A program made the translations under genes and the position numbers. The notes beneath the pieces were generated by a model. It did no database searches and had not been told where the DNA came from. It was given only the letters and a program-made list of their open reading frames with translations. A stretch of 64,000 nt of DNA from Candidatus Poribacteria bacterium (GTDB lineage Bacteria > Poribacteria > WGA-4E > WGA-3G). Of the stretch, positions 7,704 to 56,189 are shown piece by piece. The DNA is taken from positions 32,001 through 96,000 of the forward strand of contig OZ242029.1 of the NCBI GenBank assembly GCA_965205015.1, in the 5' to 3' direction. Every line of letters starts with the position of its first letter. The first letter of the stretch is position 1.

Positions 7704-10700
7704 TCATACAAACATCAATCGTTTGAAAAGCGGATCTAAGGATTCTGCCCCTGGAACGATGCTGTCTGTGTTGACATATACCTCGTTTGCACCTTCTGTG
7801 AGTTCGTGTTCTTGAATGAAACGATAATCTCGCTCCCAATCTTGTTGTTCCCATCCTGCGGTTTCACGCCATATTATGACGATCGGATTTTGCGTTACCT
7901 CGCCTTTGTAGACGAGGTAACGTCGATCATCATCATAAAGGCATTGTCGAGTTTTCACCGAAACGCCCAAGAGGTAGTTGAAAGTTTCAGGTAGATCCAC
8001 AGATTGTGTCTGAGTCTGCATATCTTTGACGATGTTGAGTTGATAGTTGAACGGATTTTGGAGCTTGGATATGTTAAGGAGGCTTGGACTTTCCTTTGTA
8101 TGACTTTCCAACATATAACTTAATTGGTGTTCGTCAAGGAACAGATTCTTATGTTCGGTTTCGCTAAGTTCGATGTTGTTGAGAGCATCTTCATAAGATT
8201 CAATGCGTTGGTATTTGATGATATGGGAAAAACGACTTTCACGGGAGACTGGTTTTGCCTCTTTCCACTTTTCGGCATAGATGGCTTTTTTGACGCGCGG
8301 TTTGAGGACAGTGTCGAAATGATGTCCCATCTCAATGAGGATATATTTACGCTTTCCACCATCTTGGCGATTGAGGTTTATGGTTGCGTGGGCGGTGGTA
8401 CCAGATCCCCCAAAGTAATCAAGCACGATTTCATTCTTACCGACGGAGGAAACGTTGAGACAATCTTCAACAAGGTGAATAGATTTAGGAAACATGAATG
8501 CCAGACTATCACCGAGTATATTTGTTAAAAAGATAGTTCCATATTGCGTTGATGAATACTCCGTTTTACCCCACCATGTTTTTGGTAGCATGCCCTCTTC
8601 GTTTAGATACCGTTTAACAGCAATTCGAATATTGCCATTGCGATCAGTTTTTGCAATAGTATCCGACAGTTTTTCTTGTAATGTTTCAACGCCATATCCC
8701 CACGTCATCTCTTCACCGTCTGATCTGATTGGTAACACTTTTGTTTCACCTTGAAACGGAGATTCCAAGAGATCCCATTGTCGTCTCTCGCTATCCCATT
8801 CCATGTGAGGAATCCGAATTCGTTTATCCTTGACAAAGAGCGGATAGAATAAACGAGGACGTGCCGTTCGGAAAGCGTTGGGACCTCCACCACTTCTAAG
8901 TCCTTTCCATACAAAGAGGCGACCCTGTTCATCAATTTCAGCATTCTCAAGTTGTTCTTTTGTTCTTTCAAGACGACCAACTTGCGCCGCTCCTGTTGAT
9001 CTAAAGAACATCGCATATTCATGGGCAGGAGCAAAGCCTGTTGGTCTTTGACGACCTGCTGGATTGGAACAAACTGCGACAATTCCGAGTTCGTTCTCCT
9101 TACCAAAGAGATTCTGGAGTAACTGCCGTAGATTAGCGGCTTCTACGTCGTCAATTGCTGCACAAAAGATGCCATTATCTGCCAACAACCCCTGGGAGAC
9201 TGAAATCCGATCTGCCATCAACGACATCCAAGATGAATCTTTGTAGTTGTTTTTGTAAAGAATTGCTGAAGCATCAGTGTTGTAAGGTGGATCAATGTAG
9301 ACCGCTTTCAAGGATTCGCGATATTTCTCCAACAGCAGGTTTAATCCTTGAAAGTTTTCACCGTGAATTAGCAAGCCACCTATCTCGTTGTCTATATCGT
9401 CAAAATGCGTCAAGAGGCGATCTATGAAATCAGAATCAAAATGACGGGTGTCCAAGACAAGGTTCGGATTTTCCTTGAGGAAGTCAACGGAGAGTGGTTC
9501 GGTGTAATCGGCACCGATAAGATCGTTGTTTATTTCGTGAATCGCAAAGAGGTGTTTCCACTCCTCAAGTTGAGCTGTGCTTTGTATGATTTCGGGATAG
9601 AATTCTTCTGGAACGCGGTCGAGTGTGAGGCAGTAGTCGGTGGAGAGAATTAACTTCTTTTTCAGCCAGAGGCACTTTTGAAATTCTTCGATATGGGAAA
9701 GGAAATCTATAATTTGGGTGGAAATGCAGTGGATGAGTTTCGCGGTTTCAAGCCAATTGTTACTATTTGTTAACAATAAGTTTACTACACCCCCCCCCCT
9801 TTTTTAACGTTTGTTAAAATTAAACTTGACAATGGGATAACCTCGTTTTTGATGTAAATATCGAGTTCGCGGCTGAGGAATCCCTTGAGGTCTTTGTGGA
9901 TGAAGAAGTCTGCGGTGTTGCGGCGGGTGTAGATACGGAGGTGTTTTTTGAGGGTGGTTATACCGTCCATTTGATGATCAAGTGCAGAAAGCGCATTATA
10001 GTGGTCAGTCAATTTTCCCATGATTTCGGGTTCAGCAGCTTCAATGATTTGGTCCTGCTGTTTTTGACCCCTGTAGATTTTCTTTTCTTCATCAGTGAGA
10101 GGACGGTATTCAAAGGGAATGCATATCTCATTGTTTTCTGGCTTATAGTTTGTCTCAGCAGATAAGGGAATAAAGAAGCGTTTCACGCCTTTGACGTTGT
10201 CCTTTTCAACATCTACATCGCGAAGGTCAAAGGTAACAGTAACACCTTGGGATTTGAATCTATAGGTGGAGAAATGTTCACCGCTCTTGACATAGTATTG
10301 GTCTCGGTTTGCCCAGTGGAGATAGACCTCTTCACCGTTGTATGGGACAGCGTAGCGTTCGGTTTGGGAATAACGTCTGCGTGGAATGAAGTCTCCGTTA
10401 TCGTAGTATCGTGAAAAAAAGGTGTAGAGATGGTTATAGACGGCATCTTCACGCTGGTCGCGATTTTGTGGGGAACCGTGTTGTTCTCTCGCTTCAAGGT
10501 ATTGCTGGATAAGCGGTCTTTCTCTGTATGCCTCATTGATGAGATTGCCATCAGCATCCAACATTTCCTCTCCGAGATTGCTACCCAACTCCCTGACTTG
10601 ATTCTCAAGTTCTGTAATATGCTCGCGTACAGATTCTGCTTCGGTGTTTGCTTCAAGTGCATTGTTAACGATAGTGGGTAATTCTTCGTCGACGAAGGCT

Positions 10701-10816
10701 TGGATTTGATTGCGTCGATAGTTGATGATGCGGTAGATACCGAAGTCAAGGTCGGCAGCATCTGCGCGGAAAAGTTGCTGGAGGAGATTTTGTAGTTTTT
10801 GTAAGGATTCTTTCAT
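7704..10816 (-). CDS. mod: Type III R-M DNA methyltransferase Mod, split into two ORFs (9785-10816 and 7704-9776) at a G10 tract
   Basis: N-terminal ADLDFGIYRII; C-terminal half has GENFQGL, YIDPPYNT (motif IV) and LDYFGGSGTT (motif I). G11 or G8 fuses the two frames. Confidence 0.9.
9790..9799 (-). repeat. Poly-G10 simple sequence repeat inside mod
   Basis: C10 at 9790-9799 on +; the coding strand reads AAAAAA GGGGGGGGGG TGTAG. Confidence 0.95.
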
Positions 10817-10905: not shown

Positions 10906-11412
10906 TCAGGTTTCATTGCGGGCGTTTATTTCCATCAGTTTTTCACGTGCCAATATTTCAAAGACCGGCATCACTCTTTCGACGAGTTCAGCGTGTCGTC
11001 CGGACAAACGATCATGTGCTGTTTGGAGTGCCTTGTGTTCTCTGGTAAGAGCATCGAGCCCAGCTCGAAGGGTCGCGTTTTCCTCTTTCAAGATTTCGTG
11101 TTCTTTCTGGAGCGCATTATACCGCCGATCCGCCGCACTTTGGAAACCGCTAAACTCCTCCTGAAGCGCATTATACCGCCGATCCGCCGCACTTTGGAAA
11201 CCGCTAAACTCCTCCTGAAGCGTATTATACTGCCGATCCGCCGCACCTTGAAAACTGCTAAACTCGCGTTGAAGGCTTTCATGTTCCACCCGAAGGGCGT
11301 TGTATCGTTCGTCCTCGCGCTTTTTGACAAACCAACCCGTAACCAAAGCAACTATGCCGAAACTAAATATCCCTATATCTATGAGACTGATGGTAGCCCA
11401 ACTGAAATCCAT
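10906..11412 (-). CDS. Membrane-anchored coiled-coil protein with 18-aa tandem repeats
   Basis: N-terminal TM helix; YNALQEEFSGFQSAADRR repeats. Confidence 0.75.
   Translation of the reverse strand: MDFSWATISLIDIGIFSFGIVALVTGWFVKKREDERYNALRVEHESLQREFSSFQGAADRQYNTLQEEFSGFQSAADRRYNALQEEFSGFQSAADRRYNALQKEHEILKEENATLRAGLDALTREHKALQTAHDRLSGRHAELVERVMPVFEILAREKLMEINARNET
11111..11275. repeat. 54-bp tandem repeat, ~3 copies (two identical)
   Basis: Unit agcgcattataccgccgatccgccgcactttggaaaccgctaaactcctcctga. Confidence 0.9.
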
Positions 11413-35964: not shown

Positions 35965-36767
35965 AAGGAAAATCCAATGAATTTCCTAATAGTACTTTCC
36001 ATCTTTTGGGTGAGCGTGCTTGTCAAATTTTCCAGATATCCATAAGTCCAGACAGCACGTTAATACCACTTGATACCAACAAGCACGGGTAATGAGACGT
36101 GTTTGTTAAAACGCAACCATTTCTAAAACACAACTCATTGTTTGGGCAGGCTTCGCGCCTGCCCAATTTCTTTGCAGTTAAGTAACCCTCACGGTGTTTG
36201 TTTCAGACTCGCCCAAGTGCCGACTCGCTTGCGTTTGACCGCACTCGGTGCCGACGGCGCCGGTTGCTCGTAGAACCCGGGAGACCCCATGTCTTCCCGA
36301 TGTCCATAGTAATAAACCTCCGGGGGCGACTCGCTCGGGACGACCTGATGAGAGACACGCGCCTGGTTCTGATGGAGTGGTGCCACCGGATCCCCTAACG
36401 CACCAAAAGCTGCCCTACCGAGACGGTGAATCTCTGCGCCATCGGCATCCGTCAACACCCACCCGCGTTTGAGGACGTTGTCTATGTTCAAGTTGTAGAC
36501 CTGTGTTGCTTCTATCCCGGAAAATCGCCATGCCGAAACTGTTCCGGTTGATAGGATCGCGACACCACCCCCTGCTATGCTGAACCCATCCTGTGTTCCA
36601 GCGAGTGTCAGTGTGTGGACCTTATGGGGGGCGGTGGCAGACCGTCGGGTGGCATATTGGAACGTGTAGCCTTTGAGGTTAACTACCTCGGTGTTGGGGT
36701 TATACACCTCAATCCACTGTGGTAATCCACTACTCCCAGCAGACCAATCTCTGACCATATACTCTGT
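35965..36767. repeat. ~800-bp near-identical direct repeat A, copy 1 (C-terminal domain, terminator, downstream DNA)
   Basis: Matches 44931-45733 at a constant offset of 8966. Confidence 0.95.
36142..36166 (-). terminator. Terminator-like hairpin after the His-rich gene (second copy at 45108-45132)
   Basis: TTGGGCAGGC-TTCGC-GCCTGCCCAA. Confidence 0.7.
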
Positions 36768-37466
36768 TATGCGTATGGGGAATAAAGGTTGAGGCTCGGG
36801 TTGTGTTTCTGGTGTCCCCTCAAGCGTTGTTCCGTATTTTTGTTGGGCTCTGAGGAAATTTTGTTCTGTGCTTGTGTCAACAGGGGTTTGGCTCTCACCT
36901 GCTTCGGATGTCCCTTCAGATGTGCCTCCCGTCGCTACCGCTGTAGGTTGAGTAACCGTAGGATAATTCACTGTTGGCTGATTATTAGGCTGTTGATTCA
37001 CAGGTTGCTGATTTTCCGGGAGTTGACGCACAGCCCGCGGAGGTGCATCCTGTTGAGGTGAGGACCCCTGAATCAAAGACTGCTGAGGGGGAGACTGTGG
37101 TTCAGCAGGTCGCTGAACAGGGTCGTGCTTATGACCTGAAAGATAGTCACCGTGATCGTGCTTGTAAGCCGCCTGCGAGTTCTCATAGTTATGTACATGT
37201 TCACCTGAACTGTAATACCAGGCTCTTGTCATCCCGCCGTAACCTGGATTTGTGTTATCGGGGAAAATATAATTGTGCTCGTGCCAACGGGTTTCCCCAT
37301 AGATTTGCACTCCACGGTCGTCGCTCTCACGGGTTACATCGCGCTGACTGGATAATTCTGCTCGACCCCGTGTTGGGTCTACCCAAGATTCAATGTTATG
37401 CGCGAACACTGACGATGACACTGCTAAAAGTGAAAGCGTTAAGAGTAAGATGCTAAATCTAAACAT
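36189..37466 (-). CDS. Secreted His-rich protein with Q/P/T linker, lamin-tail-like domain and C-terminal TWASLK motif (paralog 1)
   Basis: Signal peptide ...VFA-H; IRITEYM...QWIEVYNPNTEVVNLKGY...GSPG; KRVGTWASLK. Confidence 0.85.
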   Translation of the reverse strand: MFRFSILLLTLSLLAVSSSVFAHNIESWVDPTRGRAELSSQRDVTRESDDRGVQIYGETRWHEHNYIFPDNTNPGYGGMTRAWYYSSGEHVHNYENSQAAYKHDHGDYLSGHKHDPVQRPAEPQSPPQQSLIQGSSPQQDAPPRAVRQLPENQQPVNQQPNNQPTVNYPTVTQPTAVATGGTSEGTSEAGESQTPVDTSTEQNFLRAQQKYGTTLEGTPETQPEPQPLFPIRITEYMVRDWSAGSSGLPQWIEVYNPNTEVVNLKGYTFQYATRRSATAPHKVHTLTLAGTQDGFSIAGGGVAILSTGTVSAWRFSGIEATQVYNLNIDNVLKRGWVLTDADGAEIHRLGRAAFGALGDPVAPLHQNQARVSHQVVPSESPPEVYYYGHREDMGSPGFYEQPAPSAPSAVKRKRVGTWASLKQTP

Positions 37467-37594
37467 TTTTTATCTCCTTAGTTTGTAAAAGAAACGGTCT
37501 CTTGGAAGTGTTTTTGCTTCGGTGTTTTCCGTAGGTTGAACGAGAACGGACACAAAGCATTGGGGTGTCCAATACATCGGGAGAGACCTGATGC

Positions 37595-37648
37595 AACAAA
37601 AATAGCCCGCAATGGGAGGCTCTGTGCAAAACAGAACCACCTGCGGGC
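37595..37648 (-). terminator. Leader hairpin plus U-rich tract (attenuator candidate), cassette 1
   Basis: GCCCGCA/TGCGGGC outer stem, TCTGT/ACAGA inner stem, then TATTTTTGTT on the transcribed strand. Confidence 0.6.
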
Positions 37649-37700
37649 GCGAAGACAGTCCGATGCAGGACCGTCAGGATCGTTTTATGAAATAAAATAC

Positions 37701-37856
37701 TTATCGTTTGTGAAGAATTCGGGGGGGGTTTTTACCTATTTGAGGATCGACAGAACGCCTCAAAACGCAGCAGCCACTCCCTCTCATCGGGGCGCGCACA
37801 TCCGCACGCATCTTCAGAGACCTTTTTAATTCAAAGGGTAAACTGCACTTCGTCAT
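37701..37856 (-). CDS. Leader uORF-B (51 aa) crossing a C8 tract
   Basis: GAGG RBS; MTKCSLPF...GKNPPRILHKR*; G8 at 37721-37728 on +. Confidence 0.45.
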   Translation of the reverse strand: MTKCSLPFELKRSLKMRADVRAPMRGSGCCVLRRSVDPQIGKNPPRILHKR

Positions 37857-37887
37857 GAGCGTTCCTCAGGTAAAATGTTCAAGTCTA

Positions 37888-38022
37888 TCAAGGTTTTTTC
37901 GGTTGGCGAAGGTGTTGTTTTTCAAACGCCACCATCGCTTTTAAGTCAGTAGTTGTAAATCCATGAAATATCTCAAGGTTTTCTCTTTTGTCGTTGTGTC
38001 GGTTGCGAAAATCGCAACTCAA
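37888..38022 (-). CDS. Leader uORF-A (44 aa, TTG start)
   Basis: AAAGAGG-6 nt-TTG; (M)SCDFRNRHNDKRENLEIFHGFTT...; the frame is kept in cassette 2. Confidence 0.4.
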   Translation of the reverse strand: MSCDFRNRHNDKRENLEIFHGFTTTDLKAMVAFEKQHLRQPKKP

Positions 38023-38304
38023 ACGTATCCTCTTTCTAATGCTCTATAGTTACTTAGGTCACTTTTTCATTATTCATCATATAAAATATAAATGGCATAG
38101 GTAACTATTATACAAAATTTCCAGGTAAAAAGCAAATTATATTTACAAAAATTGCTAATTTTCCTTAAAAAGTGAATAATATTTTAGAATTGTAGCTAAT
38201 TTTTTCTGAGAAACCCCTTTCCCAAATATCGTGGGGATCTTCAGCATTTACCAGAATTCACATTGATTTAAAATTTGACCCAAAATGAAATGCGTGATAG
38301 TATA
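37951..38304. repeat. ~355-bp direct repeat B, copy 1 (promoter and 5' leader)
   Basis: Highly similar to 46972-47330. Confidence 0.92.
38107..38135 (-). promoter_or_regulatory. Sigma70-like promoter for cassette 1 (copy 2 at 47132-47160)
   Basis: TTGCTT-17 nt-TATAAT in both copies, although the spacers differ. Confidence 0.65.
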
Positions 38305-38312
38305 CCCTATTT

Positions 38313-38459
38313 AGGGCTTACGCAGTTTACCTGTTTTTGTGCGGTCTTTGGTTCGTAGTAGCGCAATGGTGCAAGTCGCGTGTGGACTTGCGGGACAATG
38401 CGCTTTCTTCGGGAATATCACCTCAATTTTGGTATAGAAGCCAATTGTGCGTAAGTCCT
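38313..38459. mobile_element. MITE-like element with 12-bp terminal inverted repeats
   Basis: AGGGCTTACGCA...TGCGTAAGTCCT; no ORF. Confidence 0.7.
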
Positions 38460-38588
38460 GTTTATAATTTTTTCCGAAATTGTGTCAAGAAAAAAATGTG
38501 TGCTTCGGTGCATACCCTGTTTTGTTATCACAGCTTGAATAAGTTATTTCGCAGTTGAGAAATTCGCAACGCAAATGGAGGCATTTTC

Positions 38589-39151
38589 ATGGGTTTTGTG
38601 TCATGTCAAGAGGATAATCAGGATACTGCCGGTGAACCTGTAAAGGCAGGAAAACAGAAAGGTCAAGTTACGAAAATAGAAGAAACAGATAAACTCATAG
38701 AACCCGATCCCAAAATGGAGACATTGACAGTGAAAAATACGGTTATCGTCAAAGCAGATGGTCTGGCGGTCAACTCTACTGAGATAGAAAGTTATGCCTT
38801 CGACATCATGTTCATGGATGATGATGAGTAATTAGAACCGCAGATAGACCTCACTGCAACCGCACGAACAGAGCCAAGTAGCCCTGGGAAAGTGTATCTG
38901 ATCTCAAGGTTCTATGACATCAAAGAAGCTTGTTCTCTGCTAACAGATCTTATGTCAAACGTTGTCCCGAGAAAATTTTTCACATTCCGTGTCACATTAG
39001 ACTTAGGAGCGTTCCCAAAGCACCCCACCGCTTATTTCACATCTTGTGGACGCAGCACGACACACGGAATATCGGTTTGTGTCAAGATGAGTCCACAACG
39101 CCGATAACCCCCGCGGTTGTCAAACTACTGGAGATGTTTTTCTGTGACTGA
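38589..39151 (+). pseudogene. Degraded hypothetical gene (in-frame TAA at 38829-38831, probable later frameshift)
   Basis: GGAGG RBS. ORFs 38589-38831 and 38892-39107 share a frame that stays open after the TAA. Confidence 0.4.
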
Positions 39152-39400
39152 TAACTCTTGAGCCTTAAGTGGCATATTTGTATTGTCTTGATTCTTTCAG
39201 TCAAATATGCTATTATTTTGTTAAGGTCGATTGTGGTGGTGCGCGGTTTAAAGGTTCTACACATTTCACTTGTAAGGTCATTTCACAATAATATTGAAGG
39301 AAGTTTCGCATAGCATTTCATAAGTTTTGGCAAGGTCCTAACCTGCAGGAACGCGGAGGATTTCACGCTATATACTTTCGCTATCATTCTCGCTTTTTAC

Positions 39401-40558
39401 ATGAACACTCCAGAAGTTTTTACACCGGAAGAACGAAACGAAAATACTGAGCGAAAGCGAGAACTGATTGAACTTATTGCCTCTGGAGAGGCTATACTTA
39501 TCGTTGGAGCCGGAAGTAGCGCGCGTGTCGGTTACGTGACTTGGAAAGGTCTTCTGAAGGAATTGGAGGATTTAGCCAATGAGTGCGGGGCCGGTCTCAA
39601 TCAAGAGCGGAAAGGCGATGATTTAGCATACGCAGAAGACATCAAATCACATATCTACAATGAAATGGGTGATTTAGGTAGATACCATGCTTTCCTTGAT
39701 GAACTTTTTAAACCTAAATCTCTAACTTACGACGAATTCCATAGATTGCTTGTTGATCTTCCTTTCAGAGGTATCTTAACCACAAATTACGATATTGTTC
39801 TTGAAGAAGCGTTGTTAGGAAAAAAGATTGAAGCAGAACGAGAAGACAGAGAGATTCCTCCTATAGATGGATCCCCGTTGGTAATCGGGCAAGATACCCC
39901 TCGACTCATCCATGAATTCCTACTATCGCGGAGCAACGATCCACGAATACCGCAACGGATTGCACACCTACATGGAATGTACAGGAATCCAACAAGTATC
40001 ATTCTCAGTATCAACGACTACATTAAGGCCTATGGCTTGCATGTTGCGGAGGATGGAGAGCAAGTTAATGAGAAAGAAGTATGGACGCTTCATCGGAAAT
40101 TGTTATGGGCTGTCTTAGCAACCCGCAGAGTCGTTTTTGTCGGTTTCAGCATGGACGACCCCTACTTTAACAAGATGTTAGAAATCGTCAGTGCAGACCT
40201 GTGGGGATGGAACAAATCTATTCACTTCGCAATTATGGGTATCTCTGCCGAAGACAAGGGAGGCATCCAAGATTCAAAAGATAAAGCAAATAGCCTCAAG
40301 AGTAAGTATGGGATAGATACTGTATTTTACGAGGTTTTTAAGGATTCACATCAACGTTTGGAGGATCTCTTCACTGAAATCGCAGAGCAATGTGAGGATA
40401 GGAATCGATCTGTTGAAGAAACCCAAGACCTGTTAAGCGATAGTGAGCGTTCCGAAGGTGAAGAATTAAAATCCATTTCAAGTGGATCGAGAGATATATT
40501 GAATTGGATTAAACGAGAAAGCCAACGTATGATAAGGAGGATGGGCGATGAAGATTAA
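39401..40558 (+). CDS. SIR2-like (SIR2_2) protein, putative NADase effector
   Basis: LIVGAGSS, ILTTNYD, AHLHG, VFVGFSMDDPY. Confidence 0.9.
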   Translation: MNTPEVFTPEERNENTERKRELIELIASGEAILIVGAGSSARVGYVTWKGLLKELEDLANECGAGLNQERKGDDLAYAEDIKSHIYNEMGDLGRYHAFLDELFKPKSLTYDEFHRLLVDLPFRGILTTNYDIVLEEALLGKKIEAEREDREIPPIDGSPLVIGQDTPRLIHEFLLSRSNDPRIPQRIAHLHGMYRNPTSIILSINDYIKAYGLHVAEDGEQVNEKEVWTLHRKLLWAVLATRRVVFVGFSMDDPYFNKMLEIVSADLWGWNKSIHFAIMGISAEDKGGIQDSKDKANSLKSKYGIDTVFYEVFKDSHQRLEDLFTEIAEQCEDRNRSVEETQDLLSDSERSEGEELKSISSGSRDILNWIKRESQRMIRRMGDED

Positions 40559-43500
40559 GCGAGAGAAACTACTTAGGGACTTGCAAGACTTCGCCACGCT
40601 AGGAAATGGAGTCATTATAGGAAGTCCAGGCGTTGGGAAAACGTACCTACTAAAAGAACTCTATCGGAGTTTAGACTCTCTTGAAATACCGGAATTCATA
40701 CTTCCTATTGATCAACTTGGAGATGGGACTGACAAAACTTTACGCGAAGAGTTGTCTTACGAGGGTGATCTGATTGAAAGGTTGAAATCCGTCCCTGTTT
40801 CAGACAAGAAAGCAATATTACTTTTTGATGCCTTTGATGCTGCCCGAGATGAACAGACGCGTAAACGTTTTCTGGACCTCATTCGCAGTGCAATTTTTGA
40901 ACTCCACGAGTCGTGGAATATCATCGTTACAGTCCGAACATACGACGCGAAAAAATCGCAGGAACTCTTAGACCTATTCGGCAATCCCAATGAAGCAGAT
41001 CTAACCAAATACAAAAGTAAAGACATACTATGCCGACATTTTACAATTCCCCCTTTTGATGAGCATGAGATTCTACAGGCATTTGATCAAATCGGGTGCC
41101 CGAAATCCATATACGAGGACGAGGAGGTCTCTCAGGACTTTAAGAACATCCTTGCAAACCCTTTCAATCTTTGGCTATTAGAAAAGATTCTAAAGAGCTC
41201 AGACGGGATTCCCGATTTTAGTCAGATTCATTCTGAAGTCCAGTTACTCGGTCTGTTTTGGCAACGACGGATTGAGAACGAAAACAGTGAGCACCTTCTG
41301 AGGCAAATCTCAGATAAGATGGTTCAAGAACGCTCATTGAGTGTCAGGGTAGATGACGTTTATGACGATGTAGACCTCGATAAACCAATGAGAAAAAACG
41401 CTTGGGATAAACTCCAGAGTGATGAAATCCTATCAAAGGTCTCTTCGTCTGGACAACGGATCGCTTTTTCTCATAATATCCTTTTTGACTATGCAATTAG
41501 CATTCTGCTCATTGATGATGAATCTCAACACCTTGAAGATTTTATTCTTGAGGATGAGTCACGTCCACTTTTTCTGCGCCCGAGTCTTACCTACTTTTTC
41601 ACTCGACTCTGGTACTATGATGACTCCACAAATTTTTGGCGCGCCTTCTGGCATATTTTGCAAAGAGATCAATTTATATCTTTGCGTCTCGTCGCGCGCT
41701 TGATTCCGACAAGCGTTATCGCAAATGAAGCCCGCGGAATTGAGCAATTGGAACCACTCTTGAAGAAACTACAGAACAGAGAAAAAATCGCAAACGAGGC
41801 AATAACACGGCTTCTGCAGGCACTCCAAACTCTACAAATTAAGCGGGACGCGCTCTGGATTGATTTTTTCGACCAAATCTCAGCGCACTTGCATAGTGAT
41901 TTTGCTTGGGATTTGGCAAATCTCACTTCAGATATCCTTGAGCGAGCACCAAAGACTGAAACACCTATCATAGACCCTTGTGGACAGATTGGACGGCGAC
42001 TGTTGAAGTGGGTATGGCAGGAAAGAGAAACGGGCGAAAACAATTGGTATGATCGCTTTGGGGGGCGTTGGGCGGTGCCGCTTGTTGCCAAAACCTACGG
42101 CACCAATGTCGATGAATCTCGAACACTTCTCAAAAAGGTTCTTGAACTGACAAAGGAAGAAAATTTTCCGATAGGCTTTCTGTCATGGTTAACCGAACAT
42201 GTTACTAAGATTTGGGACCATGATCCTAAATTTGTTATCTCAATCTATTACACTGTTTTTTCACACCAATTCACTGGCGATGGAGAAACAATACGAGGTG
42301 GAGCTGTCTTACCAATAACAACTTATCGCAGACAAGATTTTGAGATGTGTCAGTATCGATTGGTAAAGCATTTCTCCAATTTTCTTCGAGCAGCACCATT
42401 ACACGCAGCGAAAGCGGTGATCCGAAGTTTAAACGTCTTTATTGTTAGAGAACATAGCGTCAGGACAGAAGACATAAAGATGTTCAATTTTCGTGGAAAA
42501 TCTACTTGTTTTGTGCAAGATCATAGTTATATCTGGGATGAACAACAGTACACCGACGAGCCGATTGAAATGGCGGACGCTCTGTTTGAATACATCGGAG
42601 AATTGGCGATGTCGGAAGATCCGCGTCTTGATTCACTACTTGATGTTTTCTACGATGAGGTGGTAGTTGCTTTCTTTTGGAAACGGCTTTTGAAGACAGG
42701 GTCCCAGTTTCCAAAGGTCTTCGCTCCCCGTCTTTTTGAATTGTGCATTGCAGAGCCGATACAGAGGCATTCCGAAGCCTTTTATGAACTTTGCCTGTTT
42801 TTAAAAGCCGCTGCGTCTGATTTCACACCGAATAAACTTCTTCAGATTGAAAAGAGCATTTTGGCACTCCCAAGCGAAGCGAGAGACAAAAATCATCGTA
42901 ACGTTCTTGAAGAGGATAGAAATCGGCTTCTTGCCCAAATCCCGGTGGATTTGTTATGTACTGACGAAGCAAAGAGAATTCGAGAAGAAATGGAGCGTAA
43001 AAACGATGTTTCGGAGAATCGACCACCGGTTCGTTTTAGCACCTCGTGGGGACCCGTTACTGAGGAGAAGTGGCTTCAAACACAAGGTGTTGACACGACT
43101 ATACCTGAAAATCAAGAGTTACAACGCTTGTCCAGCCCTCTCAATAAATTCAGTTCAGATTGGCTAAATGATGCCCCAACTCAAGAAGCTATTAGGTTAA
43201 TTTTACCGAAGTTACAGGAGGCGTACACTAAACTAAAAAGCAACACAGAAGCCAATCAGGAAGCAATCAATCTACTGTGGCATAATCTAACCGATTGTGT
43301 AGCAATTCTCGGCCGAATTGCTAATAACCTTGAAAGTAATTCTTTCGCCTTTTGCCGACAAGTTCTCCTAGAGGCTTCAAAACATGAACAGCCTCAGCCG
43401 GACCCTAAATACGATGACGAATTTGATCATCCGGGTTATTCCTCATTTCCACGGCATGAAGCCGCCCGTGGATTACTGAGACTTGCGTTTCATCAACCTG

Positions 43501-44585
43501 ACCCAGAAATATTAGAGGCAATTGAAATACTGGCGAGTGACCCTGTACCATCTGTTAGGATGGTAACGGCGATGGAATTAACTAATGTTTATGTCAAATC
43601 TCCAGAAAGGTTCTGGCACATCATGGACAATAGGGCAATCCATGAACGGAATCGCATCGTGCAAAAATATCTCTACCATACATTAACTCGGGTGGTTGCA
43701 AAGGAAAAAGAGAATGAAGACAAGACAACTCGCGTCATGGCGAAACTATTGGAGCATACACCTCCACCTACAGAAGGATTAGAACCGTCAGATTCATTCA
43801 TCGTTTTGTTAATGTGGCTGATAATTGATCGCCAAAATCCATGGGCATTGAAAACAATCGAAGATACATTTTTCACGGATCCCATCCGGTTTGCTAACCC
43901 TCTGAGTCGTGCAGTGTCTGAGATCGTGAGAGATTACGTCCTCCCTAAACATCTTGAAACAGATATAGGACGCGAAAGAGCAAAACGAGCTATTGGATGG
44001 TTAGGGCAAGTGATCGATATAATTGCTGATAGGGTTATGGAATTGTATGGTATCGCCAAAGAACATGAGACTGAAGAAGGAGTGAAAGAGTTACACAACA
44101 CCTACAAAGCAATTGATGAGGTGATAACACGTCTTTACTTTGCAGTTGCCTACAAAAGAGATCAATCTGAGGAACCTGTTGAGGAAATCTCCAACGAGTT
44201 ACGCTGTGATTTCTATAATGAAGTCAAACCTTTGATGCAACAGGTCATTACTTTTGCACAAAAACCAGAAAGCGGTATTATGTTTGCACCGACAGCACAC
44301 TATTTCATGCAACTTCTAACGAGTTTTCTCAGTTGCGATCCCAAAGGTATTTTACGCTTAGCCTCAAGGGTTGCGAAGTCAAGTGAACGGTTCGGTTATA
44401 CGCTTGATTCCATCGCGGTTCGGGATGTTGTCGAATTTGTTGAAATTGTCCTCGCTGACTACCGAGATGAGGTGCGTGATGGTGAAGCATTGGAGGACCT
44501 GCTAAATCTCTTGGATATGTTTGCCAAAATAGGATGGACGGATGCCCTTAAACTTGTTTGGCGGCTTGATGAGGTTTTTCGGTAG
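40548..44585 (+). CDS. STAND/NACHT-like P-loop NTPase with a long helical-repeat C-terminus (Avs-like sensor)
   Basis: GSPGVGKT at the very N-terminus, LLFDAFD Walker B, IIVTVR sensor-1, ANPFNL, FSHNILFDY. Confidence 0.85.
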   Translation: MKIKREKLLRDLQDFATLGNGVIIGSPGVGKTYLLKELYRSLDSLEIPEFILPIDQLGDGTDKTLREELSYEGDLIERLKSVPVSDKKAILLFDAFDAARDEQTRKRFLDLIRSAIFELHESWNIIVTVRTYDAKKSQELLDLFGNPNEADLTKYKSKDILCRHFTIPPFDEHEILQAFDQIGCPKSIYEDEEVSQDFKNILANPFNLWLLEKILKSSDGIPDFSQIHSEVQLLGLFWQRRIENENSEHLLRQISDKMVQERSLSVRVDDVYDDVDLDKPMRKNAWDKLQSDEILSKVSSSGQRIAFSHNILFDYAISILLIDDESQHLEDFILEDESRPLFLRPSLTYFFTRLWYYDDSTNFWRAFWHILQRDQFISLRLVARLIPTSVIANEARGIEQLEPLLKKLQNREKIANEAITRLLQALQTLQIKRDALWIDFFDQISAHLHSDFAWDLANLTSDILERAPKTETPIIDPCGQIGRRLLKWVWQERETGENNWYDRFGGRWAVPLVAKTYGTNVDESRTLLKKVLELTKEENFPIGFLSWLTEHVTKIWDHDPKFVISIYYTVFSHQFTGDGETIRGGAVLPITTYRRQDFEMCQYRLVKHFSNFLRAAPLHAAKAVIRSLNVFIVREHSVRTEDIKMFNFRGKSTCFVQDHSYIWDEQQYTDEPIEMADALFEYIGELAMSEDPRLDSLLDVFYDEVVVAFFWKRLLKTGSQFPKVFAPRLFELCIAEPIQRHSEAFYELCLFLKAAASDFTPNKLLQIEKSILALPSEARDKNHRNVLEEDRNRLLAQIPVDLLCTDEAKRIREEMERKNDVSENRPPVRFSTSWGPVTEEKWLQTQGVDTTIPENQELQRLSSPLNKFSSDWLNDAPTQEAIRLILPKLQEAYTKLKSNTEANQEAINLLWHNLTDCVAILGRIANNLESNSFAFCRQVLLEASKHEQPQPDPKYDDEFDHPGYSSFPRHEAARGLLRLAFHQPDPEILEAIEILASDPVPSVRMVTAMELTNVYVKSPERFWHIMDNRAIHERNRIVQKYLYHTLTRVVAKEKENEDKTTRVMAKLLEHTPPPTEGLEPSDSFIVLLMWLIIDRQNPWALKTIEDTFFTDPIRFANPLSRAVSEIVRDYVLPKHLETDIGRERAKRAIGWLGQVIDIIADRVMELYGIAKEHETEEGVKELHNTYKAIDEVITRLYFAVAYKRDQSEEPVEEISNELRCDFYNEVKPLMQQVITFAQKPESGIMFAPTAHYFMQLLTSFLSCDPKGILRLASRVAKSSERFGYTLDSIAVRDVVEFVEIVLADYRDEVRDGEALEDLLNLLDMFAKIGWTDALKLVWRLDEVFR

Positions 44586-44808
44586 TTTTTTTATGAAGCA
44601 CGCGTTCGATAAAGTCTGCACATTTCGCTCCGCTGGGGCTTAGGGTTCGGGGATGTTGCATTTTCTATAGACATTGAAGAAACACCCAAGCAAAAACCCC
44701 CACTGGGGCTTTAAGGCAGTGGTAGGTTCCGTGTTCTATACATATTTCTTCCTGTTAGGGCTTAGGTATTTATACTCGGACATTTATGAAGGAAATTCCA
44801 ATTAAGGC

Positions 44809-44928
44809 AGGACTTACGCAAATTTGTATTCTGCGACCAAATTAATTGTTCAGAACCCAAGAATGCGCAATGAATTGCGCTACTACAAACCAGAGATGAC
44901 ACGAAAATGAGCAAGCTGCGTAAGTCCT
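44809..44928. mobile_element. MITE-like element, same TIR family as 38313-38459
   Basis: AGGACTTACGCA...TGCGTAAGTCCT. Its internal attgcgctactac is the reverse complement of gtagtagcgcaat in the first copy. Confidence 0.7.
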
Positions 44929-44930
44929 AT

Positions 44931-45733
44931 AAGGAAAATCCAATGAATTTCCTAATAGTACTTTCCATCTTTTGGGTGAGCGTGCTTGTCAAATTTTCCA
45001 GATATCCATAAGTCCAGACAGCACGTTAATACCACTTGATACCAACAAGCACGGGTAATGAGACGTGTTTGTTAAAACGCAACCATTTCTAAAACACAAC
45101 TCATTGTTTGGGCAGGCTTCGCGCCTGCCCAATTTCTTTGCAGTTAAGTAACCCTCACGGTGTTTGTTTCAGACTCGCCCAAGTGCCGACTCGCTTGCGT
45201 TTGACCGCACTCGGTGCCGACGGAGCCGGTTGCTCGTAGAACCCGGGAGACCCCATGTCTTCCCGATGTCCATAGTAATAAACCTCCGGGGGCGACTCGC
45301 TCGGGACCACCTGATGCGAGACCCGCGCCTGGTTCTGATGGAGCGGTGCCACCGGATCCCCTAACGCACCAAAAGCTGCCCTACCGAGACGGTGAATCTC
45401 TGCGCCATCGGCATCCGTCAACACCCACCCGCGTTTGAGGACGTTGTCTATGTTCAAGTTGTAGACCTGTGTTGCTTCTATCCCGGAAAATCGCCATGCC
45501 GAAACTGTTCCGGTTGATAGGATCGCGACACCACCCCCTGCTATGCTGAACCCGTCCTGTGTTCCAGCGAGCGTCAGTGTGTGGACTTTATGGGGGGCGT
45601 TGGCTGACCGTCGGGTGGCGTATTGGAACGTCCAACCTTTGAGGTTAACTGCCTCGGTGTTGGGGTTATACACCTCAATCCACTGTGGTAATCCACTACT
45701 CCCAGCAGACCAATCTCTGACCATATACTCTGT
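44931..45733. repeat. Direct repeat A, copy 2
   Basis: Near-identical to 35965-36767. Confidence 0.95.
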
Positions 45734-46585
45734 CACACGTATCGGTTGCATCAGTGGAGCACTCGGTCGCCTTTCTTGCGGCGCGATGCCTGCCGCAATA
45801 GGTCCCACGGGTTGAGGACTGGATGTCCCTGCGGGGGTTCCACCCGTCACTACCGTTGTGGGTTGAGTAACCGTCGGTTGATTCACAGGTTGCTGATTCA
45901 CAGGTTGCTGATTCACAGGTTGCTGATTCACAGGTTGCTGATTGGCAGGGCGTTGAATCCCTCCCAAAGGTGCATTCACTTGAGGTGAGGACTGCAGAAT
46001 CAGCCCAGCGCTTTGAACCACAGTGCCTTCAACCATTCGTGTGCCTACATTCGAGTGGTCGTTATCCAAATAGTGAGGATTCGGGTGCGGATGTGGATTA
46101 GTTATCGAAGAGTGTTTGTGTCCCACGCGATGCGTGTGCGATGCATAGTCATCATGCCGGTGGGCAGTAAAGGTATGCCAATGCCACTCGTTGGTATTCT
46201 CTACGGGATCAGGAGTAGGATCCGGATCTGGAGCCGCTTCATATCCAGTGGCACTGGTATCATGAGAATTAGCGTGTGCATTGGCAAATCCATCTTTCAG
46301 ATGCGGGTGATTAATAGTCTTACCTGTGCCCGCCGGTGCTCTTGCCGGTGTAGTGGTAAGTCCTGGAACAGCAGTGTTGTGATGAATCTCCGGATGACCT
46401 GGATCTGTCAGCTCCCCGCTTTCCCAGTCGACGACATTTCTATGATAATGCCACCCTGAACCGTGTTCATGATAAAGATCACCATCGTAAGTAGGACTAC
46501 TCACATCGTGTGCGTAGACAGATGAAATAGCCGTCAATACGCAAAAAACGGATAAGACGCTAAAAGTCAGTATTTTTGAAAACAT
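45155..46585 (-). CDS. Secreted His-rich protein with NQQPV repeats, lamin-tail-like domain and TWASLK motif (paralog 2)
   Basis: Signal peptide ...VYA-H; very His-rich N-terminus; the C-terminal ~190 aa are almost identical to paralog 1. Confidence 0.85.
   Translation of the reverse strand: MFSKILTFSVLSVFCVLTAISSVYAHDVSSPTYDGDLYHEHGSGWHYHRNVVDWESGELTDPGHPEIHHNTAVPGLTTTPARAPAGTGKTINHPHLKDGFANAHANSHDTSATGYEAAPDPDPTPDPVENTNEWHWHTFTAHRHDDYASHTHRVGHKHSSITNPHPHPNPHYLDNDHSNVGTRMVEGTVVQSAGLILQSSPQVNAPLGGIQRPANQQPVNQQPVNQQPVNQQPVNQPTVTQPTTVVTGGTPAGTSSPQPVGPIAAGIAPQERRPSAPLMQPIRVTEYMVRDWSAGSSGLPQWIEVYNPNTEAVNLKGWTFQYATRRSANAPHKVHTLTLAGTQDGFSIAGGGVAILSTGTVSAWRFSGIEATQVYNLNIDNVLKRGWVLTDADGAEIHRLGRAAFGALGDPVAPLHQNQARVSHQVVPSESPPEVYYYGHREDMGSPGFYEQPAPSAPSAVKRKRVGTWASLKQTP
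45876..45943. repeat. 15-bp tandem repeat (NQQPV), ~4.5 copies
   Basis: Unit ggttgctgattcaca. Confidence 0.9.
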
Positions 46586-46653
46586 TTTTCAAATCTCCTT
46601 TTTAATTTACTTTAGAAGCACAACCTAACAGGTGCTGCGACAAGGGACCTCTT

Positions 46654-46706
46654 AACAAAAATAGCCCGCAACGCGGCAAGCGTGTGGAAACGCAGCGCGG
46701 GCGGGC
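46654..46706 (-). terminator. Leader hairpin plus U-rich tract (attenuator candidate), cassette 2
   Basis: GCCCGC/GCGGGC outer stem, CGCG and GCGT/ACGC inner stems, then TATTTTTGTT. Confidence 0.6.
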
Positions 46707-46766
46707 GCGAAAAAACCGCGACAGCAGCGAAGCTGCGGACGCAGTTTATGAGATAGATATGTAAAA

Positions 46767-46901
46767 TTACTTCACGGGGGTTAAGAGGGGGGGGGTACTC
46801 GTACCTTGACTAACCACACACCAGCCGGATACCGGGACCCAGCACGGAGGCACGTTTGCTGTGGATATGGTCAGAAGAAGGGGGTCTCTATAAGCCTTCA
46901 T
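46767..46901 (-). CDS. Leader uORF-B (44 aa) crossing a C9 tract
   Basis: MKAYRDP...GTSTPPLLTPVK*; the ATG overlaps the end of uORF-A; G9 at 46787-46795 on +. Confidence 0.45.
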   Translation of the reverse strand: MKAYRDPLLLTISTANVPPCWVPVSGWCVVSQGTSTPPLLTPVK

Positions 46902-47043
46902 ACGCGTTAGTCGGGATGTCCTGAATTTGTAGATTTAAGTTATCATAAACCCAAGTTGCCAGTGAGTCGGCAGTTGTAAATCCATGAAATATCTCAATGG
47001 TTTCTCTTTTAGCGTTGTGTCGGTTGCGAAAATCGCAACTCAA
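46888..47043 (-). CDS. Leader uORF-A (51 aa, TTG start)
   Basis: AAAGAGG RBS; (M)SCDFRNRHNAKRETIEIFHGFTTADSL...AYEGL*. Confidence 0.4.
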   Translation of the reverse strand: MSCDFRNRHNAKRETIEIFHGFTTADSLATWVYDNLNLQIQDIPTNAYEGL

Positions 47044-47330
47044 ACGTATCCTCTTTCTAATGCTCTATAGTCACTTAGGTCACTTTTTACTTATTCATCA
47101 TATAAAATATAAATGGCATATGTAACTAAGGATTATACAAAATTGTCAGGTAAAAAGCAAATTATATTTACAAAAATTGCTAATTTTTCTTAAAAAGTGA
47201 ATAATATTTTAGAATTGTCGCTAATTTTTTCTGAGAAACACCTTTCCAAAATACCGTGGGGATCTTCAGCATTTACCAGAATTCACATCGAATTTAAAAT
47301 TTGACCCAAAATGAAATGCGTGATAGTATA
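46972..47330. repeat. Direct repeat B, copy 2
   Basis: Highly similar to 37951-38304. Confidence 0.92.
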
Positions 47331-47529
47331 TACTATTACTATAACGCAAGTTGCCCCCTATTTAGAGACATAGCACCCCTACGGGGTGCTATCGCTTAAA
47401 TACGCCATTTTCCATAGACATATCACCCCTAAATCAACGTCAGAATGCGCGTGCTGAAACTGCTACAGATTTCCGGGATTATCAAGAAATTCGATCTAAC
47501 TTAAAAAAAGAAGGAAAACTTCGACGGAC

Positions 47530-49530: not shown

Positions 49531-49615
49531 GCCGGAGTGGTGAAATTGGTAGACGCACGGGACTCAAAATCCCGCGGGCCCTAGGTCCATGTCGGTTCGA
49601 GTCCGACCTCCGGCA
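49531..49615 (+). tRNA. tRNA-Leu(CAA)
   Basis: GCCGGAG/CTCCGGC acceptor stem, CGGGA-CTCAAAA-TCCCG anticodon arm, long variable arm, GTTCGAGTC; CCA not encoded. Confidence 0.97.
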
Positions 49616-52773: not shown

Positions 52774-53124
52774 GGGGGTGCACAGGTTTCGACGAAGGTA
52801 AATGAGATATAGGTTGCATGCCGAGGTCTCCGCAGGCCTCGTTAAACAGGCGGAACATTTATAAATGCTGATGAAGAATTAGCATTAGCTGCTTAATGCA
52901 GCTACGCTTGGCCGACCTGCCGCCCGTCAGGGAAGCTAAAGCGCCGCAATACGGGCTAGCTGCTCGCTCATTCTCAAGGGGCGTGCCGTGAAACACTTTT
53001 TGAGATAGCCTCTTATGGATCCTGCACAGGGGAGTCTGAGAGGCGAATCTTAAATCCTGTGATAAGCATGTAGTAGCCTCTATTGAAATGCCTTCGGACG
53101 CGGGTTCGATTCCCGCCACCTCCA
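52774..53124 (+). ncRNA. ssrA: tmRNA; tag ORF ADEELALAA* at 52867-52896
   Basis: GGGGGTG...CACCTCCA acceptor stem, GGTTTCGAC, GCGGGTTCGATTCCCGC T-arm; adjacent to smpB. Confidence 0.96.
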
Positions 53125-53176
53125 TTTCTACCGCGTCATTCCGTGTTTACCAACAACACACCGCCTGCAAAACGAC

Positions 53177-54347: not shown

Positions 54348-56189
54348 ATGTTGGATGCCAACTTATTCGTTACGATTGTCGGCAGCGTGATTGCCTTACT
54401 CGTCATCTTCCTGCTAATCTATCGCTCTTTCTACAAAAAAGCACCAGCAGATTCAGCATTAGTTATCTCTGGAGGACGTAAAAAGCGGGCTGTTTTTGGG
54501 GGGAGCCTTATCAATCCACTTACGAACACGAGCCAACTTATTTCCTTGAATACGCTCCAACTTCCAGTTGAACGCACCGGACAAGCCGCGCTTATCACAA
54601 AAGACAGTTTACGGGTTGATTTGGAAGCAGAGTTCTATGTCAAAATTGAACCCAACGAACAGGATGTCCTCAAAGCGGTTGCGAGTCTTGGCGACAAAAC
54701 GTTAACGCCCGCCGAAGTTAATAAACTTCTGGAAGGCAAACTCGTCGGTGTTCTTCGAAGCGTCGCCGCAACAATGGAGCTGCAGGAATTGCACGAAAAA
54801 CGTCAACAGTTTTCTGACCAAGTTCAGGAGGCATGCCGAGACGACCTCGAACAGAACGGATTTAAGTTAGAAAGCGTCGCCGTCACCAATCTCGACCAGA
54901 CGCCACTTGAAGCACTGGACGAGAACAACCGTTTTGATGTCGTCGCAATTCAAACTATTAAGCAAGAGGTCGAAGATAGGCAAACTGAAACCGCGCGGAT
55001 CGAACACGAAAACCAAGTAAAGCGCGAAGAGAATCGACTCAAAGCCGAACTCGAAATCAAACAACGCGAAGAGGAAACGGAGAGCCAAGGCTTAGAAGTC
55101 GCCAAGCGACTTGAATTTGCACAGGAAGCGCAGCGCAAAGCAATCGCTACGAACAAAGCGGAACAGGAACGCGAGATTGAAGCACATAAACTTGAACAGC
55201 AACAAGCGGTTGAGGAAGCGCGAATCAAGCAGGAAGAAGTGGTGAAATCCACGGAAATCTCGCAGAAGCAGCGGCTCGATACGGCGCGGATCGAACAGGA
55301 ACGCCAAGTCCAAGAAACGGAGATCTCGCAGAAGCAAGCCGTCGAAATCGCACGCGTCCAGCAGGAACAGCAGATCGAAGAAGCACAGATCCAACGAGAA
55401 CTCACCGTCGAAAAAGCCAAGATTGAGCAGCAGCGCACTGTTGAAGAGACCGGTATCTCCAGCAGAATCGTTCTTATTGAGAAAGAACGCGAGGAAAAAG
55501 AGGCACAAGCCGAAAACGCAATCCAGATCTCTATCAAGGAGAAAGAACGCGAGGCAGCTCTGATAGAACTTTTAGACGTTAGCGCCCAAAAGGCGAAAGC
55601 TGAAGCGAGTGTCTTAACGGCTGAAGCCGTTGAGGAAGCGGAACGGCAAAGTAAAATCGCGCTTATCCGCGCCGAACAGGAAGCGGACGAGGAACGAATC
55701 GCCAAAGAACGCGCTGCTGACGCCGAAGCTTATGCCGTTGTAGAATCCGCTAAGGCGGAACTCGAAGCCGCAGAGGTTCAAGCACAAGCGCAAAGAATTC
55801 TCGCAGAAGCATTCCTTGTTGAAGCGAAGGCAAAAGCCGATGGTGAAGAGGCCTCAATTGCTGCAAAAAATCAAGCGGATTCCAAAGTTCTCGTTAGCGA
55901 TGCTATATTAGCACTCGTGGAATCTTTGCCTGAAGTAACCAATGAACTAATGAAACCCGCCGAGCGTATTGAAAGCATCCGTGTGCTTGACCTCGGGGGC
56001 GGTGGTAATGGCAATGGCAGCAACGGTATGAACCGGATCCTCAGCTCGATTGTGAACGCTGGGGCAGCAGTGCCCCTGCTGAAGGAAATTGTCGGATTCA
56101 GCGGTTTAGATACTGAAAGAATTGCACAGACAATTCACGATTATACTTCCAACATGGCAGTCAATGCCCAATCGGATTCAGAAGAATAG
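54348..56189 (+). CDS. Flotillin family protein (YqiK-like)
   Basis: SPFH domain (LITKDSLRVD...FYV, GFKLESV), long EQ/AEA coiled coil, MKPAERIESIRVL. Confidence 0.92.
   Translation: MLDANLFVTIVGSVIALLVIFLLIYRSFYKKAPADSALVISGGRKKRAVFGGSLINPLTNTSQLISLNTLQLPVERTGQAALITKDSLRVDLEAEFYVKIEPNEQDVLKAVASLGDKTLTPAEVNKLLEGKLVGVLRSVAATMELQELHEKRQQFSDQVQEACRDDLEQNGFKLESVAVTNLDQTPLEALDENNRFDVVAIQTIKQEVEDRQTETARIEHENQVKREENRLKAELEIKQREEETESQGLEVAKRLEFAQEAQRKAIATNKAEQEREIEAHKLEQQQAVEEARIKQEEVVKSTEISQKQRLDTARIEQERQVQETEISQKQAVEIARVQQEQQIEEAQIQRELTVEKAKIEQQRTVEETGISSRIVLIEKEREEKEAQAENAIQISIKEKEREAALIELLDVSAQKAKAEASVLTAEAVEEAERQSKIALIRAEQEADEERIAKERAADAEAYAVVESAKAELEAAEVQAQAQRILAEAFLVEAKAKADGEEASIAAKNQADSKVLVSDAILALVESLPEVTNELMKPAERIESIRVLDLGGGGNGNGSNGMNRILSSIVNAGAAVPLLKEIVGFSGLDTERIAQTIHDYTSNMAVNAQSDSEE

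Follow-up and report, generated by a model that had tools for sequence, protein, structure and literature searches.

A poly-C leader module in front of secreted-protein genes of Poribacteria: a candidate phase-variable attenuation switch

Two cassettes with a common leader layout

We analyzed a window of 64 kb of DNA from a Candidatus Poribacteria bacterium (GenBank assembly GCA_965205015.1, contig OZ242029.1, positions 32,001 to 96,000), which carries two cassettes on its minus strand, each made of a long leader and a gene for a predicted surface protein with a Lamin Tail Domain (LTD). An initial annotation of this DNA had proposed that a poly-C tract inside a leader open reading frame (ORF) determines by its length whether a translating ribosome crosses a terminator hairpin, and thereby whether the downstream gene is on or off. 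The features of both cassettes are collected in Table 1. The layout was the same in the two copies, as had been claimed, and all coordinates proposed for it were correct, with the exception of a further upstream ORF, termed uORF-A (37888-38022 and 46888-47043), which found no support. This ORF has a TTG behind AAGAGGA, but the leader segment that holds it is absent from other loci, and it sits in the block that duplication has kept 93% identical.

The proposed promoters were read at both places, as were both C tracts; runs of C or G of at least 8 occur only three times in the window. Both promoters were missed by a simple promoter scan, because their -35 elements match the consensus at only 3/6 positions. 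The block at 38105-38170 is ~80% alike to DNA upstream of three modules found elsewhere (L077, L081, and L089; see below). The cassettes are mosaic, being 93% alike over the promoter and proximal leader and 97.7% alike over the 3' half of the gene and 220 nucleotides (nt) beyond it. The middle, formed by the distal leader and the His-rich N-terminal half of the gene, is unalignable except for an 18-nt exact match, which is the 3' arm of the putative terminator with its T-rich tail. A 16-nt sequence of 3' arm and tail occurs exactly twice in the window, against 0.03 occurrences expected, and none of 100 shuffles reached two. Folding z-scores for the two copies were -4.05 and -4.49. In sequencing run X1, which best covers the window, the conserved cassette parts have 10-30x the depth of the single-copy genes between the cassettes, an excess that fits many copies in that organism or community; the same parts have 10-30x the depth of the N-terminal parts. 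Together with the mosaic pattern, this suggests a large family of cassettes with common ends, possibly arising via recombination. Mapped contigs break at the hairpin common to both cassettes (37619).

Downstream of the tract, the three reading frames remain open for 11, 86, and 5 codons in cassette 1 and for 1, 57, and 5 codons in cassette 2, and the long frame requires one additional C in both. With the frame change, the stop moves from +17 nt after the tract to +259 nt in cassette 1 and +172 nt in cassette 2. Two frames thus stop before the terminator hairpin and one crosses it, as the initial annotation had stated. In cassette 1 the TAG of the crossing frame lies 5 nt past the first base of the ATG of the gene, out of frame with it, and in cassette 2 the frame ends before the ATG. 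The two copies read the 3' arm of the hairpin in different frames (..GLFLL.. and ..RAIFV..), again as had been noted. By this reading of the frames, both window copies, C8 and C9, are predicted to be in the stopped state, one C short of read-through, in agreement with the earlier assignment of both as off. The tract lies outside the coding sequence of the gene that would be regulated, which is not the arrangement of intragenic translational phase variation.

Table 1. Coordinates of the two cassettes in the 64-kb window
Feature	Position	Strand	Description
Cassette 1, whole extent	35965-38311	-	
Cassette 1, conserved 5' block	37944..38311	-	Promoter and proximal leader; 93% identical to 46965-47337
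Cassette 1, promoter	38107..38135	-	TTGCTT-17 nt-TATAAT, AT-rich surroundings; read from sequence
Cassette 1, leader ORF (uORF-B)	37701..37856	-	51 codons; ATG with GAGGA 5 nt upstream; crosses tract; TAA 37701-37703
Cassette 1, poly-C tract	37721..37728	-	C8
Cassette 1, read-through frame	37459..37720	-	86 codons, via +1 C; TAG 37459-37461 overlaps gene start
Cassette 1, TAA closing second stopped frame	37685..37687	-	Within TCATAA
Cassette 1, first hairpin	37654..37675	-	
Cassette 1, putative terminator hairpin	37595..37648	-	GCCCGC...GCGGGC, tail TATTTTTGTT; -27.2 kcal/mol
Cassette 1, gene	36189..37466	-	425 amino acids; signal-peptide-like N-terminus, His-rich N-terminal half, LTD
Cassette 2, whole extent	44931-47337	-	
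Cassette 2, promoter	47132..47160	-	TTGCTT-17 nt-TATAAT; read from sequence
Cassette 2, leader ORF (uORF-B)	46767..46901	-	44 codons; ATG; crosses tract
Cassette 2, poly-C tract	46787..46795	-	C9
Cassette 2, read-through frame	46612..46786	-	57 codons, via +1 C; TAA 46612-46614, 26 nt short of ATG
Cassette 2, first hairpin	46712..46746	-	Followed by TTTTTT; ends approximate
Cassette 2, putative terminator hairpin	46654..46706	-	GCCCGC...GCGGGC, tail TATTTTTGTT; -22.5 kcal/mol
Cassette 2, gene	45155..46585	-	476 amino acids; signal-peptide-like N-terminus, His-rich N-terminal half, LTD

A dispersed module family in the Poribacteria

Rfam 15 contained no covariance model matching either leader at the gathering score, nor any matching 37400-38400 at E values up to 1, and the leader ORFs and terminators have no entry in Rfam or Pfam. 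A stricter hairpin pattern gave no match in the genome contigs, and a looser pattern gave matches. In GTDB species genomes the hairpin pattern occurred at 12 places, eight of them in Poribacteria metagenome-assembled genomes (MAGs). A tract of C8-C14 was located 63-95 nt upstream in seven of these eight and a decayed tract in the eighth, and the four matches outside the Poribacteria had no tract. A metagenome scan for the hairpin returned nine loci, and the module was present in L004 only; the other eight were rejected as ordinary terminators of other organisms. L004 combines a C7 tract with the same TA-rich motifs, and it has two hairpins and a gene with a signal peptide; its only match to Rfam was at chance level (E 0.79). 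Directly upstream of the L004 module lies an IS630-like transposase pair (L004 positions 315-1510). A protein search starting from the LTD genes identified two distant LTD homologs, L001 and L002, neither of them with a tract or hairpin (the intergenic region of L002 is 130 nt); therefore, the module does not travel with the LTD domain. These results support the view that the motif recurs almost only in Poribacteria, and the recurrence in relatives foreseen by the initial annotation is borne out.

A covariance model, R1, was built from 17 instances and used at an E cut-off of 0.001, with 30 candidates scored per genome. R1 matched in 61 of 101 sampled genomes of the phylum, ~430 times in total and up to 25 times per genome among the 30 candidates scored in each; the other 40 genomes had no match. 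Just two copies were matched in the window. In the complete genome G001, 7 of the 21 runs of C8 or longer sit in modules, and 14 tracts of C8-C9 there are outside any module. We dissected 57 of the ~430 matches, comprising a first set of 43 from ~35 genomes and 14 from genome G066. Locus positions were taken from the R1 model coordinates; a regular expression missed 17 of 30 new loci. Genome G066 contains seven near-identical modules (L108-L110 and L112-L115), each followed by tandem repeats in a long leader that stays open in the read-through frame for ~140 codons before a signal-peptide gene; this set looks like a recent expansion.

The modules are consistently positioned in front of genes and on the strand of the gene. 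Most downstream proteins begin with a signal-peptide-like segment, as expected from the earlier suggestion that the motif precedes secreted-protein genes. A domain scan covered 29 of the 36 called downstream proteins, the seven left out being paralogs, orthologs, or the window's own genes. Fibronectin type III (fn3), leucine-rich repeat (LRR), cadherin, cohesin/dockerin, WD40, FlgD_ig, or NPCBM domains were identified in 15 of the 29; other matches were to DUF4007, a mechanosensitive-channel domain, and a cytochrome domain, and 9/29 had no domain match. Poribacteria are known for such 'eukaryote-like' repeat proteins. Two of the 29 are transposases, probably inserted; the first downstream ORFs of L073 and L089 encode DDE_Tnp_1 and HTH_32 proteins.

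In all 57 instances an ORF with an ATG, GTG, or TTG start enters the tract, and with one exception among 16 the length of this leader ORF is 39-203 codons. Differences between leader ORFs, counted by codon position in three subfamilies, were 174/144/143, 24/18/37, and 85/63/83. This distribution suggests that the leader peptide is under no protein-level constraint, and that the openness of the ORF is kept rather than the encoded peptide; it fits the earlier proposal that ribosome transit is what is conserved. Of the 43 loci, 18 have a promoter that matches TTGACA-17-TATAAT at 10-12 of 12 positions and lies 43-85 nt ahead of the start of the leader ORF; eight of these are the perfect consensus. 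The tract, located 100-240 nt downstream of the promoter and inside the ORF, is therefore predicted to be transcribed as part of the leader, and not to serve as a promoter spacer.

Homopolymer tracts in promoter spacers are the basis of phase variation in Bordetella fim, Neisseria porA/opc, and Mycoplasma vlp, and the vlp genes of Mycoplasma hyorhinis and the Bordetella fim genes form surface multigene families with one tract per copy in a conserved 5' region and combinatorial expression. By analogy, the poly-C tract might lie in the -35 element or spacer of an internal promoter whose -10 element is a TAAGTAT/TATAAT motif ~17 nt downstream, and a TA-rich motif (TATAAT in L015 and L017) is indeed present 15-21 nt past the tract in most of the first 11 instances. 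However, this motif provides the stop codon for one of the stopped frames, and the open frame reads it as ATA-AGT-ATT; no -35-like hexamer stands at a fixed distance upstream of the tract, and tract lengths of 7-29 go far beyond spacer tolerance. A transcript starting there would contain only the two hairpins and the terminator, and the strong consensus promoters are found upstream of the leader ORF instead. With the tract inside a start-codon ORF at every locus, we consider a promoter-spacer switch barely credible. In vlp and fim the tract sets promoter geometry, whereas the Poribacteria tract is part of a leader ORF downstream of a consensus promoter.

The motifs GATAAG(T) and TCATAA that follow the tract are the stop codons of the two stopped frames. 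The leader ORF of 16 of the first 17 instances comes to its stop 0-28 nt past the tract, ahead of the first hairpin. Single folds gave a two-hairpin structure in 42 of 43 instances. The terminal hairpin has a median energy of -21.2 kcal/mol, with at least six T after it in 10, and the hairpin with its T-tail is the most conserved feature of the module. We regard this GC-rich hairpin with a T-rich tail as a putative intrinsic terminator, placed between the leader stop and the gene in 42/43. RNAalifold on MAFFT alignments retained only six invariant outer pairs and showed no covariation, and a column search of the alignment yielded no consistent first helix; the structure is for this reason argued from single folds, which are weaker evidence than covariation. 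Neither the single folds nor the consensus fold contained an alternative antiterminator pairing.

Reading frames, tract states, and the proposed switch

Every one of the 57 instances has one or more frames open from the tract through the end of the terminator, extending to the relatives the open-frame claim made for the window; in the first set of 43, one frame is open in 36 and two in 7. Dinucleotide shuffles gave a mean chance of an open frame of 0.58 per instance and a joint chance over the 43 instances of ~5e-12, or of 3.5e-4 when one most conservative instance was taken from each of 17 sequence clusters. A gene start was called at 36 loci; in nine of them the read-through frame stops no more than 7 nt from it, and five of the nine have an ATGA-type 4-nt overlap. 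In the G066 subfamily the open frame extends ~420 nt and ends ~45 nt before the gene. At L072 and L076 the ribosome site of the gene begins 5 nt after the T-run, and therefore there is no room for a promoter of its own and the gene would be transcribed only through the hairpin.

A read-through product of ~100-200 amino acids could itself be the protein that varies in phase, or could extend the gene product at its N-terminus, with the hairpin being incidental. The case for this comes from L063 (genome G001), where the open frame runs into a signal-peptide-like segment and fn3 domains, and from the stretches ..ISIL.H.. and ..SRAIFV.. that are common to the extensions. These stretches, however, are conserved DNA motifs read in two or three frames, the conservation of the module is highest over the hairpin and T-tail, and the open frame of 16 of the first 17 instances closes near the gene start, in a frame other than that of the gene. 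We therefore judge this explanation very unlikely. L063 is the sole in-frame fusion observed. It has no start codon or ribosome site close to the part encoding the signal-peptide-like segment and fn3 domains, part of the hydrophobic segment is encoded by its terminator T-run, and its hairpin has an altered 3' arm.

The shortest tracts, C4-C6, are interrupted and decayed; the longest is C29, and the mode is 9. At their current lengths, 13 of the 57 instances are in the read-through frame and 44 in a stopped frame. Read-through was found in L080 (C10), L091 (C16), L094 (C12), L099 (C29), L101 (C12), L107, L108, L110, L111, and four decayed tracts; the 29-C tract of L099 (genome G035) is in the read-through frame as assembled. 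Both states are thus present in genomes. Two loci of one genome, L110 (C8, read-through) and L113 (C9, stopped), are otherwise ~98% identical, and L018 (C14) and L055 (C10), apparent orthologs before the same gene in two genomes, are in different stopped frames. Of the first 43 instances, 35 are stopped; 19 of these would reach read-through by +1, 11 by -1, and 5 by either change. Because all three tracts of the window need +1, homopolymers had been suspected to be under-called uniformly, which these mixed needs for +1 and -1 exclude.

These data suggest that each cassette is probably one copy of a Poribacteria-wide cis-regulatory module that switches its gene on or off in a heritable way, through phase variation of a leader ORF with transcription attenuation as the read-out. 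In the proposed mechanism, a sigma-70-type promoter would start a long leader, and ribosomes would translate a leader ORF of 40-90 codons into the poly-C tract. At two of the three tract lengths (modulo 3), the ribosome would stop at the GATAAG/TCATAA motif 0-30 nt past the tract; both hairpins would then fold, the second, with its U-rich tail, would end transcription, and the gene would be low or off. At the third tract length, the ribosome would cross both hairpins, block the terminator, and stop at or near the start codon of the gene, which would then be transcribed and, at some loci, coupled in translation as well. The state would flip whenever slipped-strand replication added or removed one C, and recoding on the C-run could add a basal level of expression. 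The anatomy, its conservation, the frame logic, the spread of tract lengths, and the presence of both states in genomes are read from the sequences; the slippage rate, the translation of the leader ORF, the termination, and its relief by ribosomes are inferred.

Several observations weigh against a freely switching module of this kind. Read-through is rarer than one in three, being found in 5 of 37 intact tracts of at least C7 in the first set, and the ..KR-TAA frame is in use at each of the four loci with the CACAAACGATAA motif; scarce read-through together with a fixed ..KR-TAA frame could reflect selection for the stopped frame instead of free switching. The segment from tract to terminator holds only 1-7 stop triplets, so that a single open frame is weak evidence, with single-instance P values of 0.16-0.91. 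The leader ORF of cassette 2 has no clear Shine-Dalgarno sequence. Each state was called from a homopolymer length in an assembly, and such lengths are subject to error. In contigs from two other studies, both tracts have the lengths found in the window: one (X4, record 17) spans the C8 tract without a gap at ~99% identity, and one (X2, record 16) spans the C9 tract without a difference. No length variant at either window tract was present among the indels listed from mapped contigs, which drop rare variants.

The same weak P values per instance, together with the mixed technologies behind the MAGs and the elevated depth over cassette parts in run X1, which a repeat predicts (10-30x that of neighboring single-copy genes), would be compatible with an inert dispersed repeat or terminator cassette, with open frames due to chance and tract lengths due to assembly noise. 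An inert element of this type does not explain the joint frame statistics, the start-codon ORFs in 57/57, the correctly placed consensus promoters, the ATGA-type overlaps with the gene start, or the consistent position before genes on their strand, and we consider it highly improbable.

A further alternative is a physiological attenuator, in which ribosomes stall on a poly-proline C-run according to elongation factor P (EF-P) or prolyl-tRNA and the stall governs terminator formation, or in which RNA-polymerase slippage or ribosomal frameshifting brings a constant share of ribosomes into the read-through frame without a change in the DNA. In E. coli pyrBI and in trp/his-type leaders, a ribosome close behind the polymerase decides whether the intrinsic terminator of the leader forms. 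Those leaders sense nucleotide or amino-acid supply by pausing or alternative hairpins, whereas the input in Poribacteria would be a heritable frame change; proline codons are present, but within an uninterrupted C-run that varies in length and does not follow triplets. Every leader ORF reads the tract as PP(P), +1 frameshifting is a known tendency of C-rich proline codons, and the stopped frame in 44/57 and the ..KR-TAA frame in 4/4 would fit a fixed template with recoding. On the other hand, the runs are pure C and never mixed CCN codons, their lengths, 7 to 29, do not keep to multiples of three, and both states occur among genomes and near-identical paralogs. Recoding in a single direction would not fit stopped instances that need +1 in 19 and -1 in 11 of 35 cases, and stalling would act at a site at least 40 nt before the first hairpin, with no antiterminator pairing found. 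We conclude that a physiological attenuator is unlikely. The frame-gated attenuator is our best reading, and no rival accounts for the joint pattern as well.

Neighboring features, known systems, and significance

Between the two cassettes of the window are genes for a SIR2_2 protein and a 1345-amino-acid NACHT/STAND NTPase (39401-40558 and 40548-44585), a defence-like pair flanked by a 56-nt inverted repeat (38312-38367 and 44874-44929, 78.6% alike), as if the pair had been inserted between tandem cassette copies. At 9790-9799 the third long homopolymer of the window, a G10 run on the gene strand, splits a DNA methyltransferase gene (ORFs 9785-10816 and 7704-9776, minus strand) into an upstream part of 343 amino acids and a downstream part of 690 amino acids with an N6_N4_Mtase domain; by our reading of the frames, one additional G would join the parts. 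This looks like a classical phase-variable, or frameshifted, restriction-modification gene. The window also contains tandem direct repeats inside ORFs (54 nt x3 at 11102-11274 and 66 nt x2 at 55251-55382), a transfer-messenger RNA gene (192.6 bits) at 52774-53127, and a tRNA gene at 49531-49615.

Other systems are known in which a leader element is phase-variable. In H. pylori tlpB, a G-repeat is reportedly targeted by the small RNA (sRNA) RepG. In H. influenzae hmw, heptamer repeats in the 5' untranslated region act with the involvement of RNase III (PMC12721329). Both resemble the Poribacteria module in having a slippage-prone repeat in a transcribed leader that acts after transcription start, but they are graded and work via RNA structure and processing or sRNA pairing, whereas the read-out in Poribacteria would be the frame of the leader ORF. 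In the C. difficile flagellar switch, a phase-variable element of the flgB leader likewise controls premature termination (PMC7446863); that termination is Rho-dependent and the switch is a DNA inversion by a recombinase, which is not known to involve a repeat tract, leader ORF, or intrinsic terminator.

The closest likeness is to the pil1 operon of S. gallolyticus, for which the mechanism was demonstrated by genetics and involves GCAGA repeats in a leader-peptide gene (PMC3894217). As in the Poribacteria module, a promoter is followed by a leader ORF with a slippage-prone repeat, a stem-loop terminator, and the genes. Translation in the in-frame state ends ahead of the hairpin, the short pil1 peptide ending 39 bp before the premature terminator; an out-of-frame change of the repeat leads to longer peptides that stop within or beyond the terminator, and ribosomes then keep it unfolded (PMC3894217). 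The low state prevails in both, among cells for pil1 (PMC3894217) and among loci for Poribacteria. The two differ in the repeat, which is a homopolymer of C7-C29 in Poribacteria and ~22 GCAGA units in pil1, and in the frames, since either out-of-frame change turns pil1 on (PMC3894217), whereas usually one frame is open in Poribacteria (36/43). Moreover, the Poribacteria module has two hairpins, its read-through frame often ends exactly at the gene start, and a genome may carry 25 or more copies of it, before unrelated genes, in an uncultivated phylum where its function is predicted from sequence.

The initial annotation had known of no description of the arrangement for this lineage. Among the titles listed by a literature search outside subscription journals, none described it in Poribacteria, with a homopolymer as the repeat, or with so many copies, and to this extent the claim stands; the mechanism as such has been published for pil1 (PMC3894217). 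Different from pil1 are the homopolymer, the second hairpin, the usually single open frame, the frequent coupling to the gene start, and, above all, the dispersed, multi-copy, phylum-wide family.

On balance, we lean towards the view that sponge-symbiont Poribacteria possess an uncatalogued, phylum-wide family of poly-C leader-ORF/terminator switches, with dozens of independent switches per genome, each gating a secreted (fn3, LRR, cadherin, cohesin, WD40, LTD) or defence gene and together giving a clonal population a combinatorial, heritable, and reversible repertoire. For annotation, 'frameshifts' that stem from tract length in these leaders are best taken as states and not as errors. If the view is right, a mechanism described to date for a single streptococcal operon would prove to be that of a widespread family of regulators, and a compact natural part, the frame-gated terminator, would be added to those available. 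It would also amount to a contingency-locus strategy at the scale of host-adapted pathogens, in a mutualist. The surface proteins in question are thought to mediate recognition by the host and by phages, and stochastic on/off switching of each gene would offer a testable answer to how uncultivated sponge symbionts vary them.

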